A stretch of DNA of 47,094 bases from Gemmatimonadota bacterium (GTDB taxonomy: Bacteria; Latescibacterota; UBA2968; UBA8231). Positions 9,001 to 15,000 of this stretch are shown in pieces (within the stretch, counting starts at the first letter, position 1; each line of letters opens with the position of its first letter). The position numbers are program-made. Location: positions 43,312 through 90,405 of the forward strand of contig JAYPJE010000011.1 in assembly GCA_038128265.1 (NCBI GenBank), written 5' to 3'.

Positions 9001-12000
9001 CTGAATGGGTGCGGAACGGAGGTGCGGTCCCGCGCGTCCTATTCTTAGCCGTGCTGGGTGGTGCCACGTTGGCGCACAGCGCCGGGGCACTGAGACCCTA
9101 CTACGAACAGCCCAACAACCTGCACGGATATTACGAGAGCTGCTTGGCGACCGGGCGGGTCATCGACGGCAAGGTGCCGGCGGATGCTCTGTTGGTCGTG
9201 GGTGATTTGGATGAGAACGCCGGCGCGCCGTTTCGCGCACAGAGTCCAACCATGTTATACTATGCCCATCGCAAGGGGTGGCAAATTACGCCGGACGAAT
9301 TTTCGATTGCGCGTCTGGACAGCCTGGCCGCAGCCGGCGCCGACTTTTTCTTGGTGCCCGCGGCTTTTGCCATGCGCGACCGAGCATTCTGGCTCGCATT
9401 GGTCGATCGAGGAATTTCGACGCCTGCATCGCACCCCCACTTGTGGAGAGACGAGAAAAGGTTTCTTTCCCATATAAAGAGCCAGTCCGATGCGTCACGC
9501 CACTTCGTGCTGATGCCGCTCCGCGCTCACCAGAAGCCGTGAAATCGATGCGTCAGGACTGCTGATGGAAATATTTATCAGACCGAATGCCAAAGGAGGG
9601 TTGGCACGATGAACACAGTATGGTTGCGGAATAAGGTTTGGCTGAGTGCTTGCTTTGGTATGCTTGTCGCGCTGGGCGGCTGCGCCACGACCGGCAGCGG
9701 TGTTCCGTATGGTCCGCCGCCGATTGCCGAAGGCATGGGCCGTCTCATGCTGGAAGCAGGTGGAATCAACGAAGTCAACTTCTACGTCATTGACAACGAG
9801 ACCGGCGAAGAGGTCTATGCCGAGACGCCGCGTTCTGCGGCCAGTTCGCCCATCGGCTACGAAACGGGCTACGGTGCATTCCCCCAATACGTCGATCTGC
9901 CACCGGGTTCCTATTTGGTCGTGGTCAATACAGATGTCGAGGACAGCGTGGAGAAAGAAGTGCAGGTCAATATGGGACAGGAGGTGTATGCTACCATTCC
10001 CATCGGCCGTTTTCAGCTTATTTTCTTCGAGGGCAGCGAGCGCCGTCAGGTTCCCTTCCTCATATACGACTACAATTTGCGCACGGTTTTGGGGCGCGGT
10101 ATGACGTCGACTGAGGTGCGCTACTTTATCGTGCCGACGGGCGAATACAAAGTGCGCATCGAAAATTTGGCTAGCAGCGGCAGCGACGAAATACGTCCGG
10201 TGCAGGTCAATATGGGCCAGACGCAAAATATCATTATCGGTCCTCCGCCGACACCGGGACAGCCGGGCGAAGGAGCCGAAGAAGGCGAACAACAATAGGT
10301 TTAACGCGGAGTGATCTCTATGAAATCTACACGTGACCATACGCGCGGCTACCCGATGGTGTTGCTTGTGCTATTGCTCGCTCTGGGCGGCGTTGTTGAG
10401 GGATGGGCCACGCAGGCGATCGTGATCGACCGCTATGGGAACCAGCACAAGGTGGAGCGCTTTGCGTATCAGGGGCGTCAAGAAATAGAGATTTATATCG
10501 GAGATCAGAGACGCATGCTGCAGCTGGCCCTGATCGACCGCATGCGTTTCGAAGGTGAGTCGCGCGACGACGAGCAGTCTATTTCCCTTACGCTGCGCTC
10601 CGGCAAAAGTGAAAAGGGCGTCATGCTGACGGGGGGAGGGGCCGCTCCGCACCAGGACGCCGTTGGGGGCGGTAGCAGCGGCCGGCGCTTTACAGGCGTC
10701 ACGTCGCTGGGGCCGTTCTTTATTCTGGTGAACGATGTGCAGGAAATCATCCTGCAGCATCCCGAAGGCGAGGAGGTCGTTGAGGAGCCCGTTTTAAAGG
10801 CTACGGTCATCACGCTGGACGGCAAGCGTTTTGAGGTCGAAGATCTGCGCTTTCGCGGCAAGCTGCGCCTCGATTTTTTTCGCGGGCGCAACAAGCGCTT
10901 TATTCCCCTCGACAAAGTTGATAAGATTGACTTTGACGACAGCGGCGCCGCCGAGGAGTTTCGTCCCATCACGGCCACCTATTGGAACGGACGCACTGTG
11001 ATGGGAACCGTCGACGCCAGCACCGTGCGGCTTTCGGGGGAAACCGATAAGAGCTACTATGAACGCGTCAATGCGGCCCTGACGGGAAAAACGGGCTCTG
11101 GCCCGTTTTCCATAGGGATGCATTACGTAAAACAAATACGCTTTCGGGCTCAGAGCGAGGACGAAGAGGGTAGTTAGATGCTCTGAATGGGCCCATTTTG
11201 CCCCTAACATATTATTTTCTACTACCTTAGGATGGTGTGTGGACGCAGTAGTTTTGACTTGACACCTGCTGCACTTTAGCATATCATAAGGTGGAATTTT
11301 TTTATCTAACGCAGTCTCATCGCGTTCTCTCTCTGGAGAATGCGATGGTCGCATTTTATTTTCTGCGCATTCCACGGCGAAAGGAGGTGATGGCGGACTA
11401 CACTTTTTCTGAAAATGCTCACGTGTTTTCAGTATTTATGCGGTGTCATCTTGATGCCACATAAGCCTTCTTTACCAATTAAGTCGTATTGTGTGATTCA
11501 AAAGATCTTTTGGAAGGAGTCCAAACAAATGAGAAAGTCTCTACTCTCTCTGATCGTTGCCGGCCTCGTTGGCGGCATGAGCGGTACCGCAAGCGCCCAC
11601 ATCGGCGAAGCTGTTTACCTCATTTACGAAATTCCCGATTCGGATTTGGCTGATATCGATCTGCGTGATGTCAGCGTCGCTGACTGGGAAGACGTCGTTG
11701 GCGATGCTCCGCTCGTCACGACCGATTTCTATCAGGATCCGACCGTGGGTGAAGGCGCCCAGTACGATCCGGCCGACCTCGACTATCGCATTTGGATTGG
11801 TTGGAACGGCAACTCCAGCACCGTTTACATGGGCATGGAGCGCGTTGATAACGTGTACATCAACGAGTATGCTGGTGGCGACCTCGGTCAGCTCTGGCGT
11901 CACGATGCCATTGAGTTCATGCTCGACGGCGACCACACCGGTGGTGACTACACTGGTTCGGCCGACGAGAACTGGACTGACGAAGAGAAGAAGCTGAACG

Positions 12001-15000
12001 GTAACCGCACCGCGCAGCAGTACGTTGCTATCGCCGACACCCCCGATGGCCGCCACGTCGGTTATCAGGGCGCCGGTGCTGAGTGGGTCAACGCGCTGCC
12101 CTACGCCGATGGCGGCGGTGGCTCGGTTGGCGAAGGCCCGACGACCTCGATTTTCGAGTTCTACGTCACGCCGTTTGACGATCTGATCTGGAACAGCCCC
12201 GATGACAGCCAGGCCACGAACCTGGTCGACGGTGGCATCATTGGTTTCCAGATCTCGGTGCCTGACTTCGACATCGAGCCCTCCAACTACCGCGCGTTCC
12301 ACACCCTGTCCGGTCAGGCCGCTACCTGGCGTTACGCTGAGCGTTTCGTCGACGGTCGTTTGGTCGGTGCCGGTGGTGGTGGCACGGCTGTTGAGAGCGA
12401 CTCGTGGGGCCGTATCAAGGCTTCGGTCGAGTAATTTAAGCACTGCAAAGTGCTGTGGTATTCTGTTGAAGAGAGGGGGGAAACCCCCTCTCTTCAACTC
12501 CGTTTTTCAGGACAGATGCATGCTGTTGTAACCTTCCTGCTGTTAGTATCTCGCCCTTTTATCGCGTTTTGAATGAGGAATCTGATCCGGAGAGTCAAGG
12601 AATGAGATGGTCAAAGTGTATCGCCGTAGCAGTGCTGGCGGGCCTGGTGGGAGAAAGTCCTGCCGAACTCAAGATCTTTTCCATTCCGCAAGACATCTCC
12701 TGGGCTGACGCCAAACAGGGCCCTATCTCCGAACAGCGTTATCTCGAGGCCATCGACCTCCTGCGCGTCCCCGACGGCATCGCGCCGATTGAGCCGGTGC
12801 AGATGGTCCCTGTACCCCTCGTCGAAGAGGGCAGCGCAGACGCTGATTCCATTCTCTTTGAATTTTCGCAGCATATTGCACGAGCTGAAGTTGTGGCGCA
12901 GTTGGATGCCGTTCTCGGCGATCGTTCTGTCGCCGCGGGGGACGTGCTCATTCCCCGCTGGGGTGATTTTCCCCGGTCGCTTGAAGACGTGCAGATGCTG
13001 CGTCTGGCCGGCGTGGATACGGTCGCGGCGTTGATCAATGTCGCCGAATCATTCCCGCGTCCGCCGGGCGGTGACAAATACAATAAGGGGCTGAATCTCA
13101 CGACGCTGGGGATTTTTGAGCGGGCGCTCACCCTGCAGCGGCTCCAAGAGGGGCTTGGTCGGGTGTTTGACGGCGATCCGCTCACGCACTTTGAGCGCAT
13201 TGACCGCGTTGGGCAGGATGTAAAGCAGGTTTGGACGCTATATGTCGACCTTGGCCGCTTTTTTCCCATTCGGCTCATGCGTGTCTATCCCAGCCCGGAG
13301 GCGCCGGTCCGCATCTCTGCGTATACGTTTTATCGCGGCATTGCCGGCACGGAAAAAACCATCGCCGGTCTGAGCCTGGACGATCCGACGGTCGGTCAGC
13401 TGGCCTTCCCTATATTCACTAAAATTGCGCCTACGTTCCCGACCTTTGTGCCCGAGCAGAGCGCGCCCGTCAACGTGGAGGACACGGTGGCGGTGGCCTT
13501 TGACCCGCCGACCAAAATGCGCTACGCGCGCATGGATTTTCAGACGGAGCTAGACTACGATCTGGGCGAGATGGAGTTTTTTGCCGACGGCTTCGTGCCG
13601 CAGGCAACGTATCGCTCGGTTGCCCTGCCGCTGCCTCCATCGACGCTCGGCCGCATTTTTTGGGAAGAGGAAAAAATTGGTGACCCGACCAAGTCGAGCG
13701 CCATTGTGCGCGTTCAGACGGGGGTTAACGCCGAGCCCGATGTGCTATTTCGCGTTAACGAATTCGAGCGTCAGGTCGAGTGGAAGCCCGAGGATGCCAT
13801 CGTCGTAGACCGCCGTGCCGGTTCGAAGACGCGCGGTGAGCAGATTGATTTGAACGACCCGCAGTTCAACTTGGAAGTGCGCGAAATTTTCAGCGCGCTG
13901 CTGCCCGAAGAGCGCGAAGCCGTTCGCCTGACCCGCGCCGAATATCAGGCGCTGCCCGGCAATTTGCGCAGAAAGATCGAACCGGATCTGGAGTACTGGA
14001 GCGGCGTGCAGCAGGTGACAAATGGGCAGCTGATTAATTCGCCCAGCGGTAGACCCTTCATACAGATACAGATAGAGTTTAAGAGCCTGTCTGCCGAGTC
14101 GGCTACCGTGGTTCGCAACTTGCGCTTTGAATACTCGGCACCGCAGATCACCGATGCCGTGGTCGGCGAGATCGCACCTGCAGTCGACGTCAAAGCCGGT
14201 ATAGACACGACCTTCGCCATTGCAATCAAAGCGCTCTTGGGAGCCGATAACAACGGATTCAACCGATTGCAGGTTTTCACGCCGGCCCGCGTAGAAGGCA
14301 TTCAGTCCGTGTCCATAGACATGGGTGCCGGCGGTATGCGCACCTTGTCTGCCAGTGAAAATCCCGATATCGGGGCTGATCAGTTCAGCGCGCTGTACGT
14401 CGACGATGAACAATTCGTCATCGGCTTTCCGACGATTACCCCCGGTGATGACGGGCTGGATCGAGAAGCCATCGTGAAGGTCAACTTCCGCGCGCGCGTG
14501 ATTGACTTTCGCACGAATTTTTCGGCCAACGTGTTCTTGGATACGCTCGCCTCGGGCTTTGACCGCCGTTTTACCAGCAACGGAATTTTGACGCTGGGTG
14601 CGGCCGCCGACACCTTGGCGCTCTTTCTGCCACAGCCGGTCGAGGGCAGTGACGTGGTCGACTTTGATGCTACAGAGCAGCTCTCCGACCGCAACTCGCT
14701 TGCGGTCATAGCCGATATCTCGGCGCAGGGGAGCAATTTGGTAGCCAATTTCGAAACGACTCCCAACCCCTTTACGCCGAACGGCGACGGGGTCAACGAC
14801 CAGCTAGAGGTCCGCTTTGATGTCCAGCGCTTGTTGACGCCTCGTGCGGTTTTGCTCGAGGTCTACGACCTGAATGGCAACCGCCTGCGCCTTATCGAGC
14901 GTTCGCTCAACTCAGGGGGGTATTCGGAGCAGTGGGATGGACGAGATGATACGGGCAATCTCGTGCCGCCGGGCTTGTACATACTCCGGCTGTCGACGGA

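Follow-up and report, generated by a model that had tools for sequence, protein, structure and literature searches.

Short C-terminal sorting tags such as LPXTG (sortase), PEP-CTERM (exosortase) and GlyGly-CTERM (rhombosortase) require a membrane helix and a basic tail. In the available parts of two reports, every T9SS signal described is a beta-sheet domain of 40 residues or more that carries motifs B, D and E (PMC11969387, PMC10202324). In the accessible text of the first, the PorU cleavage consensus is PT/GI, with G, A or S as the +1 residue, and the short CTDs of Prevotella intermedia, which span 40-55 residues, form three beta-strands and carry motifs B, D and E, are cleaved at PT/GI (PMC11969387). 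Excerpts of two papers describe further classes. The type-B CTD (TIGR04131) has about 100 residues or more, uses its own PorP/SprF shuttles and is probably uncleaved (PMC12618676). The type-C CTD of ChiA, also of about 100 residues or more, is a distinct signal class, and how one machine recognises different signals is given as an open question (PMC10202324).

The window analysed here is a stretch of 47,094 nucleotides from a Latescibacterota genome. The first-pass annotation had placed a gene with a short C-terminal sorting tag at 11529..12434 (+), and the open reading frame confirmed it: it encodes a probably exported CBM9-like protein of 301 aa ending in GTAVESDSWGRIKASVE. Residues 1-23 (11529..11597, +) were assigned as a probable Sec signal peptide ending in ASA by a heuristic hydropathy value of 2.87, and no lipobox was found in it by pattern. 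Residues 24-279 (11598..12365, +) were modelled by AlphaFold2 as a CBM9-like beta-sandwich with a mean pLDDT of 92, and the best Foldseek matches of this body were the CBM9 structures 7nwo, 7nwn and 1i82 (E 5e-9 to 8e-9). It was followed by a flexible Gly linker, GAGGGG (residues 280-285; 12366..12383, +), which was coil in the model, and by T/AV (residues 286-288; 12384..12392, +), a putative PorU cleavage motif also present in 18/38 type-A CTD linkers of this genome. The protein closed with SWGRIKASVE (12402..12431, +), a short helix with the invariant W293 and K297. The tag was helical in two structure models; in the AlphaFold2 model of the window protein, helix 292-299 had a pLDDT of about 60-66 and was detached from the domain. 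The tag was retained in 118 of the 120 closest homologues, and its Trp and Lys were invariant in 112/112 aligned homologues. By consensus match only, a sigma-70-like promoter (11259..11287, +; 11/12) lay upstream of the gene and a terminator-like hairpin with a 15-pair stem lay 3' of it (12465..12498, +).

The tag is real in this genome. In an independent set of 3,572 genes, the consensus [TS]AVExx[ST]WGxIK was found at the C-terminus of 22 proteins, 2-15 residues before the stop, with no internal copies. A profile of 18 tails gave 22 matches in this set, each 2-15 residues from the stop, with scores of 23.6-42.5 (20-41 on leave-one-out). The next-best match was internal (15.7), and a weak 23rd terminal match (C37) scored 11.4. 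An HMM built from the 22 tails and run against the six-frame genome at E<=1 returned the same 22 places and no others. The earlier count of 24 was reduced to 22 firm cases and one weak case, while the terminal-only position held. The reported enrichment of WG..K was reproduced (21 against 2 and 2 in two internal control windows), but its top rank passed to E...W...K (20 against 0 and 1). The bodies were varied, as claimed, but not all unrelated. Eight were CBM9-like paralogues joined by BLAST, a ninth (C7) had a Pfam CBM9 match, and C14 and C83 formed a related pair; about 13 distinct bodies, not 24, therefore carry the tag.

The Trp and Lys were invariant in 22/22 tails, the Val of T/AV was nearly so, and the Lys mostly stood 4-5 residues from the C-terminal end. 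Since synonymous codons differ freely, the motif is conserved at the protein level, and a DNA repeat as its origin was rejected because the codons vary. As had been noted, most tagged proteins had a hydrophobic N-terminus (20/22, against 1,215/3,402 or 36% of all proteins, by a hydropathy heuristic); the two others were truncated at contig ends. Judged by hydropathy, the tagged proteins would thus have the N-terminal Sec signal peptide of T9SS cargo. A microcompartment or encapsulin targeting peptide was rejected because the cargo bear signal peptides. The paralogue at C13:64649 is signal-bearing, yet it has no tag. The absence of a membrane helix was also verified, as no 19-residue stretch within the last 35 residues exceeded a hydropathy of 1.31, and a membrane-anchored sorting tag was rejected on this value. 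No Pfam or NCBIfam model covered any of 69 tails, and 23 whole tagged proteins gave no match to the CTD models of either collection. The sole PDB match to the tail profile (7t7y, E 0.13) was internal and was taken as chance. No published description of the tag was found in a literature search reaching few subscription journals and no supplements. The taxonomic range was wider than first given, as Bacteroidota in the wide sense and Patescibacteria also carry the tag.

The opening linker of the tag was said to precede type-A CTDs as well. This was the case: [TS]AV stood before 18/38 type-A CTDs here, against a background of 1.45%, at a fixed distance of 18-21 residues before PNPF. T/AV resembles the published PorU cut site PT/GI, and by this sequence match the tagged proteins would possess a cleavage-site motif in a flexible linker, as T9SS cargo do. 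A cut there would leave 13-18 residues in 21/22 tails and 26 in one case. Eisenbacteria-type tails had a looser linker, often with Pro at the +1 place. At the other end, a Lys stood 5 residues from the end in 22/38 type-A CTDs here, and the near-terminal Lys of the CTD was reported to be functionally important (PMC10994853). A tag that starts with the pre-CTD linker might be a functionless stump from CTD deletion, or a DNA repeat translated at gene ends. Such an origin is scarcely credible, since it is contradicted by the invariance of Trp and Lys across 13 bodies and several phyla with varying synonymous codons, and past the linker the tag has no likeness to CTD sequence.

Exchange between the tag and the type-A CTD was observed on two kinds of body. 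A search with the window body minus its tail gave 150 best cluster representatives, of which 99 carried the tag at the C-terminus, 18 had a CTD-type tail (15 above the TIGR04183 cut-off), 33 had neither and none had both; the last result is partly trivial because tag and CTD compete for the same protein end. P0034 shares 70% identity with the window protein; it carries an additional domain and, in place of the tag, a type-A CTD. In P0285, the body is followed by TPVEE and then directly by a CTD-type tail. The second case was a Bacteroidota gene of 130-190 aa, consisting of a signal peptide, an Fn3-like (Ig-like) domain and the tag. It was present in 70/201 Bacteroidota genomes, in exactly one copy in 69 of the 70, and it occurs in Ignavibacteria-, Kapabacteria- and Rhodothermaceae-titled genomes. 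Its Fn3-like domain directly preceded a type-A CTD in all 15 larger relatives fetched, and in this genome the same arrangement was found at C47:40-1170. No conserved T9SS genes were seen among the neighbours of the single-copy gene. An Atlas search with its protein gave unnamed clusters only; the nearest named one, at 0.82, was PF18962 (11% of members), which is a lead. At the sequence level, these two independent tag-for-CTD swaps supported a T9SS-linked sorting signal.

SprA, PorV and PorU are all encoded in this genome, with at least 8 PorV-family loci and 45 type-A CTD matches above cut-off; the PorP/SprF model gave nothing above cut-off. PorU was matched in 47/47 tag-bearing genomes chosen from a GTDB scan (48 of 121 pattern loci; repeats, the chance matches L076 and L096, and others were omitted), with 37 matches above cut-off, 9 just under it or split, and 1 of paralogue type only. 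Five oddly titled loci were checked separately and gave two exceptions: the tag-bearing Patescibacteria genome G478, in which PorU was not found, and G370, with one tag on a 2.7-kb contig and no PorU match. In the sister families f2-f4, PorU was above cut-off in 0/44 and a marginal tag match was seen in 1/44; SprA was present in 5/5 and PorV in 2/2 members tested. PorU-bearing groups mostly without the tag were also found (f8, 0/5 tagged; Bacteroidia, 8/121). The pattern of PorU loss may reflect one event, and related genomes are not independent. Within this family, tag matches per genome ranged from 4 to at least 73. The swaps, the likeness to the PorU motif, the absence from PorU-less sister families and the lack of any model supported the earlier proposal of an undescribed peptide-sized sorting signal tied to the T9SS.

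A T9SS-independent signal that shares only its lineage with the T9SS, and that serves to retain proteins in the periplasm, to associate them with membranes or vesicles, or to have them processed by another protease, is in our view very unlikely. In its favour, kinship confounds co-occurrence, the tag is carried by Patescibacteria without PorV, and the GldM model (PorL/PorM motor) had no match here, in a genome 84% complete and a search without a control match. This explanation is opposed by the two type-A CTD swaps and the common cut motif. It is also opposed by the Patescibacteria themselves, which hold true type-A CTD genes and whose tagged genes look imported. The tag was found in 19/251 Patescibacteria, and PorV in none of the 19. 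True type-A CTD genes were found in 81/251, in 15/19 tag-positive genomes vs 66/232 others. The tagged genes had a GC of 0.55 vs 0.47 for their neighbours, and their homologues included Krumholzibacteriia-titled tagged proteins, as would be expected of imported genes. In 4 of the 24 Patescibacteria loci examined, the tag was N-terminal, after the signal peptide, twice on M23 peptidases.

The gene neighbourhoods in the window were also inspected. A second tagged gene, ending in TDVDESTWGKIKELFH, was found at 5497..6039 (+; probable start 5554) with a profile score of 31.6. Its body had no Pfam match, and its homologue L088, in a conserved context, retains the tag. Two neighbours of the window gene encode type-B-like CTDs, at 12569..15052 (+; Pfam CHU_C 31.9 bits, cut-off 27) and 15110..18451 (+; 22.6 bits, below cut-off). 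A protein of about 900 aa follows at 18513..21266 (+), without a Pfam or NCBIfam match; its nearest named Atlas cluster was DUF6029 at 0.89, a lead only. By BLAST and gene maps it is one of 24 paralogues, a family that clusters with type-B-like cargo and CBM9-like tagged genes.

The tag may instead be an uncleaved docking peptide, whose helix would bind a T9SS-associated partner and let small proteins be exported along with it or adhere to it, the T9SS link being indirect. Candidate partners would be a carrier with a CTD, a barrel of the PorV family, the attachment complex or the neighbours of about 900 aa. We regard this as possible but rather doubtful. It keeps some weight because Patescibacteria without PorV carry the tag, N-terminally in four loci. 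The small size of tagged proteins (119-340 aa here vs a median near 780 for type-A CTD cargo) and the location of 9/9 CBM9-like tagged genes in clusters that include type-B-like cargo or members of the 900-aa family also point to docking. The helix was amphipathic, with a moment of 0.50 vs 0.39 +/- 0.02 for shuffled tails (the tails being partly pattern-chosen), but the beta-period moment was equally high (0.55). In addition, docking needs no T/AV, yet T/AV is kept at fixed spacing ahead of the helix, and the 11 singleton tagged cargo genes share no common neighbour. When the main PorV (C56; one of about 11 members of its family) was modelled in complex with the 32 C-terminal residues, the score was 0.00 twice, without controls, and it counts neither way.

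We favour reading the tag as a T9SS signal of peptide size that serves small cargo, and consider this moderately probable. The tag sits in the usual place of a far larger T9SS signal, of which it is probably a scaled-down and hitherto uncatalogued form. By hydropathy, a Sec signal peptide would take the protein to the periplasm. A part of the T9SS, which by analogy would be a shuttle of the PorV family, would then read the terminal helix [ST]WGxIKxx[FY] instead of a 70-80-residue Ig-like CTD. After passage through SprA, PorU would cut at T/AV, removing 13-18 residues (26 once), and the cargo would be released or anchored. Several observations count against a T9SS signal: described signals are beta-domains with motifs B and D, which the tag is not, and there are the looser Eisenbacteria-type linker, Patescibacteria without PorV or (G478) PorU, the N-terminal copies, G370, the PorU-bearing groups mostly without the tag, the GldM search without a match and C13:64649. 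A bolder version, which we hold to be unlikely, makes the tag an ancient fourth T9SS signal class, a helix of 16 residues that would suffice for export and for processing by PorU. It would be represented by one conserved gene in non-Bacteroidia Bacteroidota and, after expansion in Latescibacterota and Eisenbacteria, by dozens of cargo there, and machinery-less Patescibacteria epibionts would have acquired tagged and CTD genes and dock proteins, including M23 peptidases, onto their hosts' T9SS.

If the favoured reading is true, the T9SS can recognise not only a folded beta-domain but also a short helix. The tag would bear on how the T9SS recognises different signals and would be its smallest export or anchoring tag yet. 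In this family, each genome would contain about 20 to more than 70 previously overlooked cargo, hypothetical where annotated. The single-copy gene would bring the question into cultured relatives, and Patescibacteria might reveal their hosts through the tagged and CTD genes that they carry.

Compared with known systems, the tag shares with LPXTG, PEP-CTERM and GlyGly-CTERM a short C-terminal module that follows a flexible linker and occurs on exported proteins of unrelated kinds, but it has no membrane helix. Type-B and type-C CTDs, in the parts of their descriptions available, are a precedent for separate signal classes; the tag had no sequence match to them among NCBIfam and Pfam models, with no separate run of the type-C model cl41395. 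The type-A CTD is a 70-80-residue Ig-like seven-stranded beta-sandwich, whereas the tag has about 16 residues and is helical. Motifs B (Tyr, Gly) and D (GxY), as given in the accessible text of PMC11969387, were absent from the tag alignments. In the case of motif E, a basic residue near the C-terminus, the tag has its near-terminal invariant Lys, but within a helix. The short CTDs of Prevotella intermedia, as that text describes them, are a precedent for a shrunken, still-cleaved T9SS signal, although the tag is far shorter (13-18 residues past the putative cut) and helical. The tag is nevertheless like the type-A CTD (TIGR04183, PF18962) in several ways: both are C-terminal on Sec-exported proteins, share a putative upstream cut motif, have a Lys near the end and are interchangeable on homologous bodies.

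The window gene at 11529-12434 encoded a 301-residue product ending in GAGGGG-TAVESDSWGRIKASVE. With independent gene calls, the tag motif was again the top C-terminal enrichment in the source genome (G000). The tag profile gave 22 matches among the proteins of this genome, with scores of 23.6-42.5, each 2-15 residues before the stop. Below them came a gap, an internal match at 15.7, and one weak terminal case besides. An HMM recovered the same 22 places and nothing further. The first-pass annotation had reported 24 tagged proteins with unrelated bodies. The terminal position held, but the count came to 22 firm cases and one weak terminal case; several kinds of body were present, but about 13 distinct bodies rather than 24 separate ones. 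The 22 bodies were nine CBM9-like proteins, one pair and 11 singletons, the last including fasciclin, YHYH, FGE-sulfatase, gluconolactonase-like, LTXXQ and temptin-like proteins. The hydrophobic N-terminal stretch described earlier was found in 20 of the 22, compared to 36% of all proteins, and the two misses were contig-cut. A CBM9-like paralogue at C13:64649-65509 of the source genome had a signal peptide, lacked the tag and lay away from the usual gene cluster. It offers a natural control for localisation.

The AlphaFold2 model of the window protein showed a CBM9-like sandwich at residues 24-279; the tag formed a helix of its own (292-299) after a coil, with a pLDDT of about 60-66. A separate terminal helix was also seen in the model of a second, unrelated tagged protein. 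The tag consisted of two parts, [TS]AV and then [ST]WGxIKxx[FY], in which Trp and Lys did not vary. The proposed link of its opening to the linkers of type-A C-terminal type IX secretion (T9SS) signal domains (CTDs) was borne out, since 18 of 38 type-A CTD proteins of the source genome had [TS]AV at a distance of 18-21 residues ahead of PNPF, against 1.45% in random windows. According to Ye et al. (PMC11969387), the protease PorU cuts in a flexible linker at the consensus PT/GI, where G, A or S is preferred at +1. A cut at the putative T/A site would remove 13-18 residues from 21 of 22 tagged proteins. The tag Lys was mostly 4-5 residues from the C-terminus, and a Lys lay 5 from the end in 22 of 38 type-A CTDs of this genome, a likeness in position. 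Lauber et al. (PMC10994853) describe the near-terminal CTD Lys as almost invariant and functionally important. We consider it fairly probable that the tag is a peptide-sized T9SS signal. The tagged protein would be exported by Sec, the helix would be recognised by T9SS, PorU would cut at T/AV, and the small cargo would then be released or anchored.

Tag and type-A CTD replaced each other on related bodies. The close homologues of the window protein carried Latescibacterota or Gemmatimonadota labels, which puts the source genome in this part of the FCB group. The tag was kept in 118 of the 120 closest; the others were a fragment and P0034, which was 70% identical and carried one additional domain and a type-A CTD. 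Synonymous codons varied within the tag coding sequence. That the tag is a stump is very improbable. A profile of the nine tail-less bodies matched 2,263 cluster representatives, and the tails of the best 150 were compared. The tag stood at the end of 99 of these (218-409 aa) and a CTD-type tail at the end of 18 (385-1,813 aa), of which 15 exceeded the TIGR04183 cut-off and two fell below it, with no score listed for one. None carried both, and 33 carried neither, many being fragments or drifted tails. A second, independent case was a protein of 130-190 aa with a signal peptide, an Fn3-like domain and a RRTWGSIKAMFR-type tail. Among 201 Bacteroidota, 70 were tag-positive, and this was the sole tagged gene in 69 of them. 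A type-A CTD directly followed the same Fn3-like domain in all 15 larger proteins fetched (of many), and likewise at C47:40-1170 of the source genome. The single-copy protein (L075:2135-2530 and relatives, alignment A2; 2,963 matches in wide-sense Bacteroidota) was named only "hypothetical protein" and is possibly an unrecognised T9SS accessory protein.

The source genome had SprA, PorU, many PorV-family genes and 45 type-A CTD matches over the cut-off. No PorP/SprF match reached the cut-off, and the GldM model found nothing there and matched no positive control either. By eye, PorV-family genes adjoined long TPR-like and ExbB/ExbD-like genes (C7:66389-75164, C37:35071-41777), which are possibly an alternative power source for T9SS. 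The gene at 18513-21266 of the window and 23 paralogues formed a 24-member family of about 900 aa without a Pfam or NCBIfam match. It repeatedly adjoined type-B-like CTD genes in this genome, and a role as a so far unrecognised shuttle or anchor is possible. Another C25-family protein, of about 1,800-1,900 aa (L011, C29:27111-32405), was conserved phylum-wide, including families without canonical PorU.

The tag was widespread. It occurred in 60 of 121 genomes of the source phylum and in 40 of 40 of family f1 (4-73 matches each among the matches listed). In families f2-f4 of the same class, PorU was over the cut-off in 0 of 44 genomes, with only the long C25 paralogue present, and one marginal tag match was found; a broader profile, run on 17 of these genomes, gave two marginal, non-terminal matches in all. 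SprA (5/5 tested) and PorV (2/2 tested) were retained, and the absence of PorU and tag may reflect a single loss event. Family f8 had PorU and no tag (0/5), and f10 had the tag in 5 of 11. A strict DNA pattern gave at least 121 loci in GTDB. Those listed were titled Eisenbacteria, Krumholzibacteria, Latescibacterota, Ignavibacteria, Kapabacteria, Caldithrix, Zixibacteria, Marinimicrobia or unnamed bins, and included two chance-like matches, no PNPF-type CTD and one frame above 450 residues among 76 complete frames. At locus L172 (G002:C8:2017422-2020469), several tagged frames stood in tandem, one of only 75 residues, which suggests local duplication or decay. For 48 loci picked from the at least 121, all 47 genomes had a PorU match (37 over the cut-off, nine under or split, one paralogue-type). 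These 47 include the unpublished genome G144 (L067), which also supplies one row of the 18 in A2. In Bacteroidia, where T9SS has been studied, the tag occurred in 8 of 121 genomes, and this rarity may explain why it was overlooked.

Five oddly titled loci were checked, and two lay in genomes without PorU. One genome without PorU, the Patescibacteria-titled G478, had four tagged genes, which lay on long contigs with core genes around them. The tag was present in 19 of the 251 genomes of the same class, and none of the 19 had PorV. Type-A CTD genes occurred in 81 of the 251 (e.g. L211-L222), namely 15 of 19 tag-positive versus 66 of 232 other genomes, with kin not independent. Some of these CTD genes may be binning errors, and several were on long contigs. 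The tag thus followed the CTD pattern even where T9SS was absent. The tagged genes of this class had higher GC than neighbouring genes; several were similar to tagged proteins from FCB-type genomes, and synteny within the family was seen for some. At 4 of the 24 loci examined, the tag motif stood directly behind the signal peptide (L198:1441-2127, L199:928-1707, L202:721-1680, L208:730-1635), the first two being M23 peptidases. Cleavage by PorU in that place would be meaningless, and this favours docking as the function, at these loci at least. An uncleaved docking helix as the general function is possible but rather doubtful, a signal independent of T9SS is improbable, and a cleaved T9SS signal remains our preferred reading.

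The tag is real and uncatalogued in the sources searched: no description was found in the literature searched, supplementary files aside, and the earlier statement that no Pfam or NCBIfam model covers the tail held over 69 tails. Sortase-type tags have a membrane helix, which this tag lacks. Prevotella short CTDs are of 40-55 residues with three strands, and the tag is not of this kind. It also lay outside the type-B and type-C definitions in PMC12618676 and PMC10202324. The tag fits none of CTD types A, B and C, yet it appears to act similarly to a T9SS CTD.
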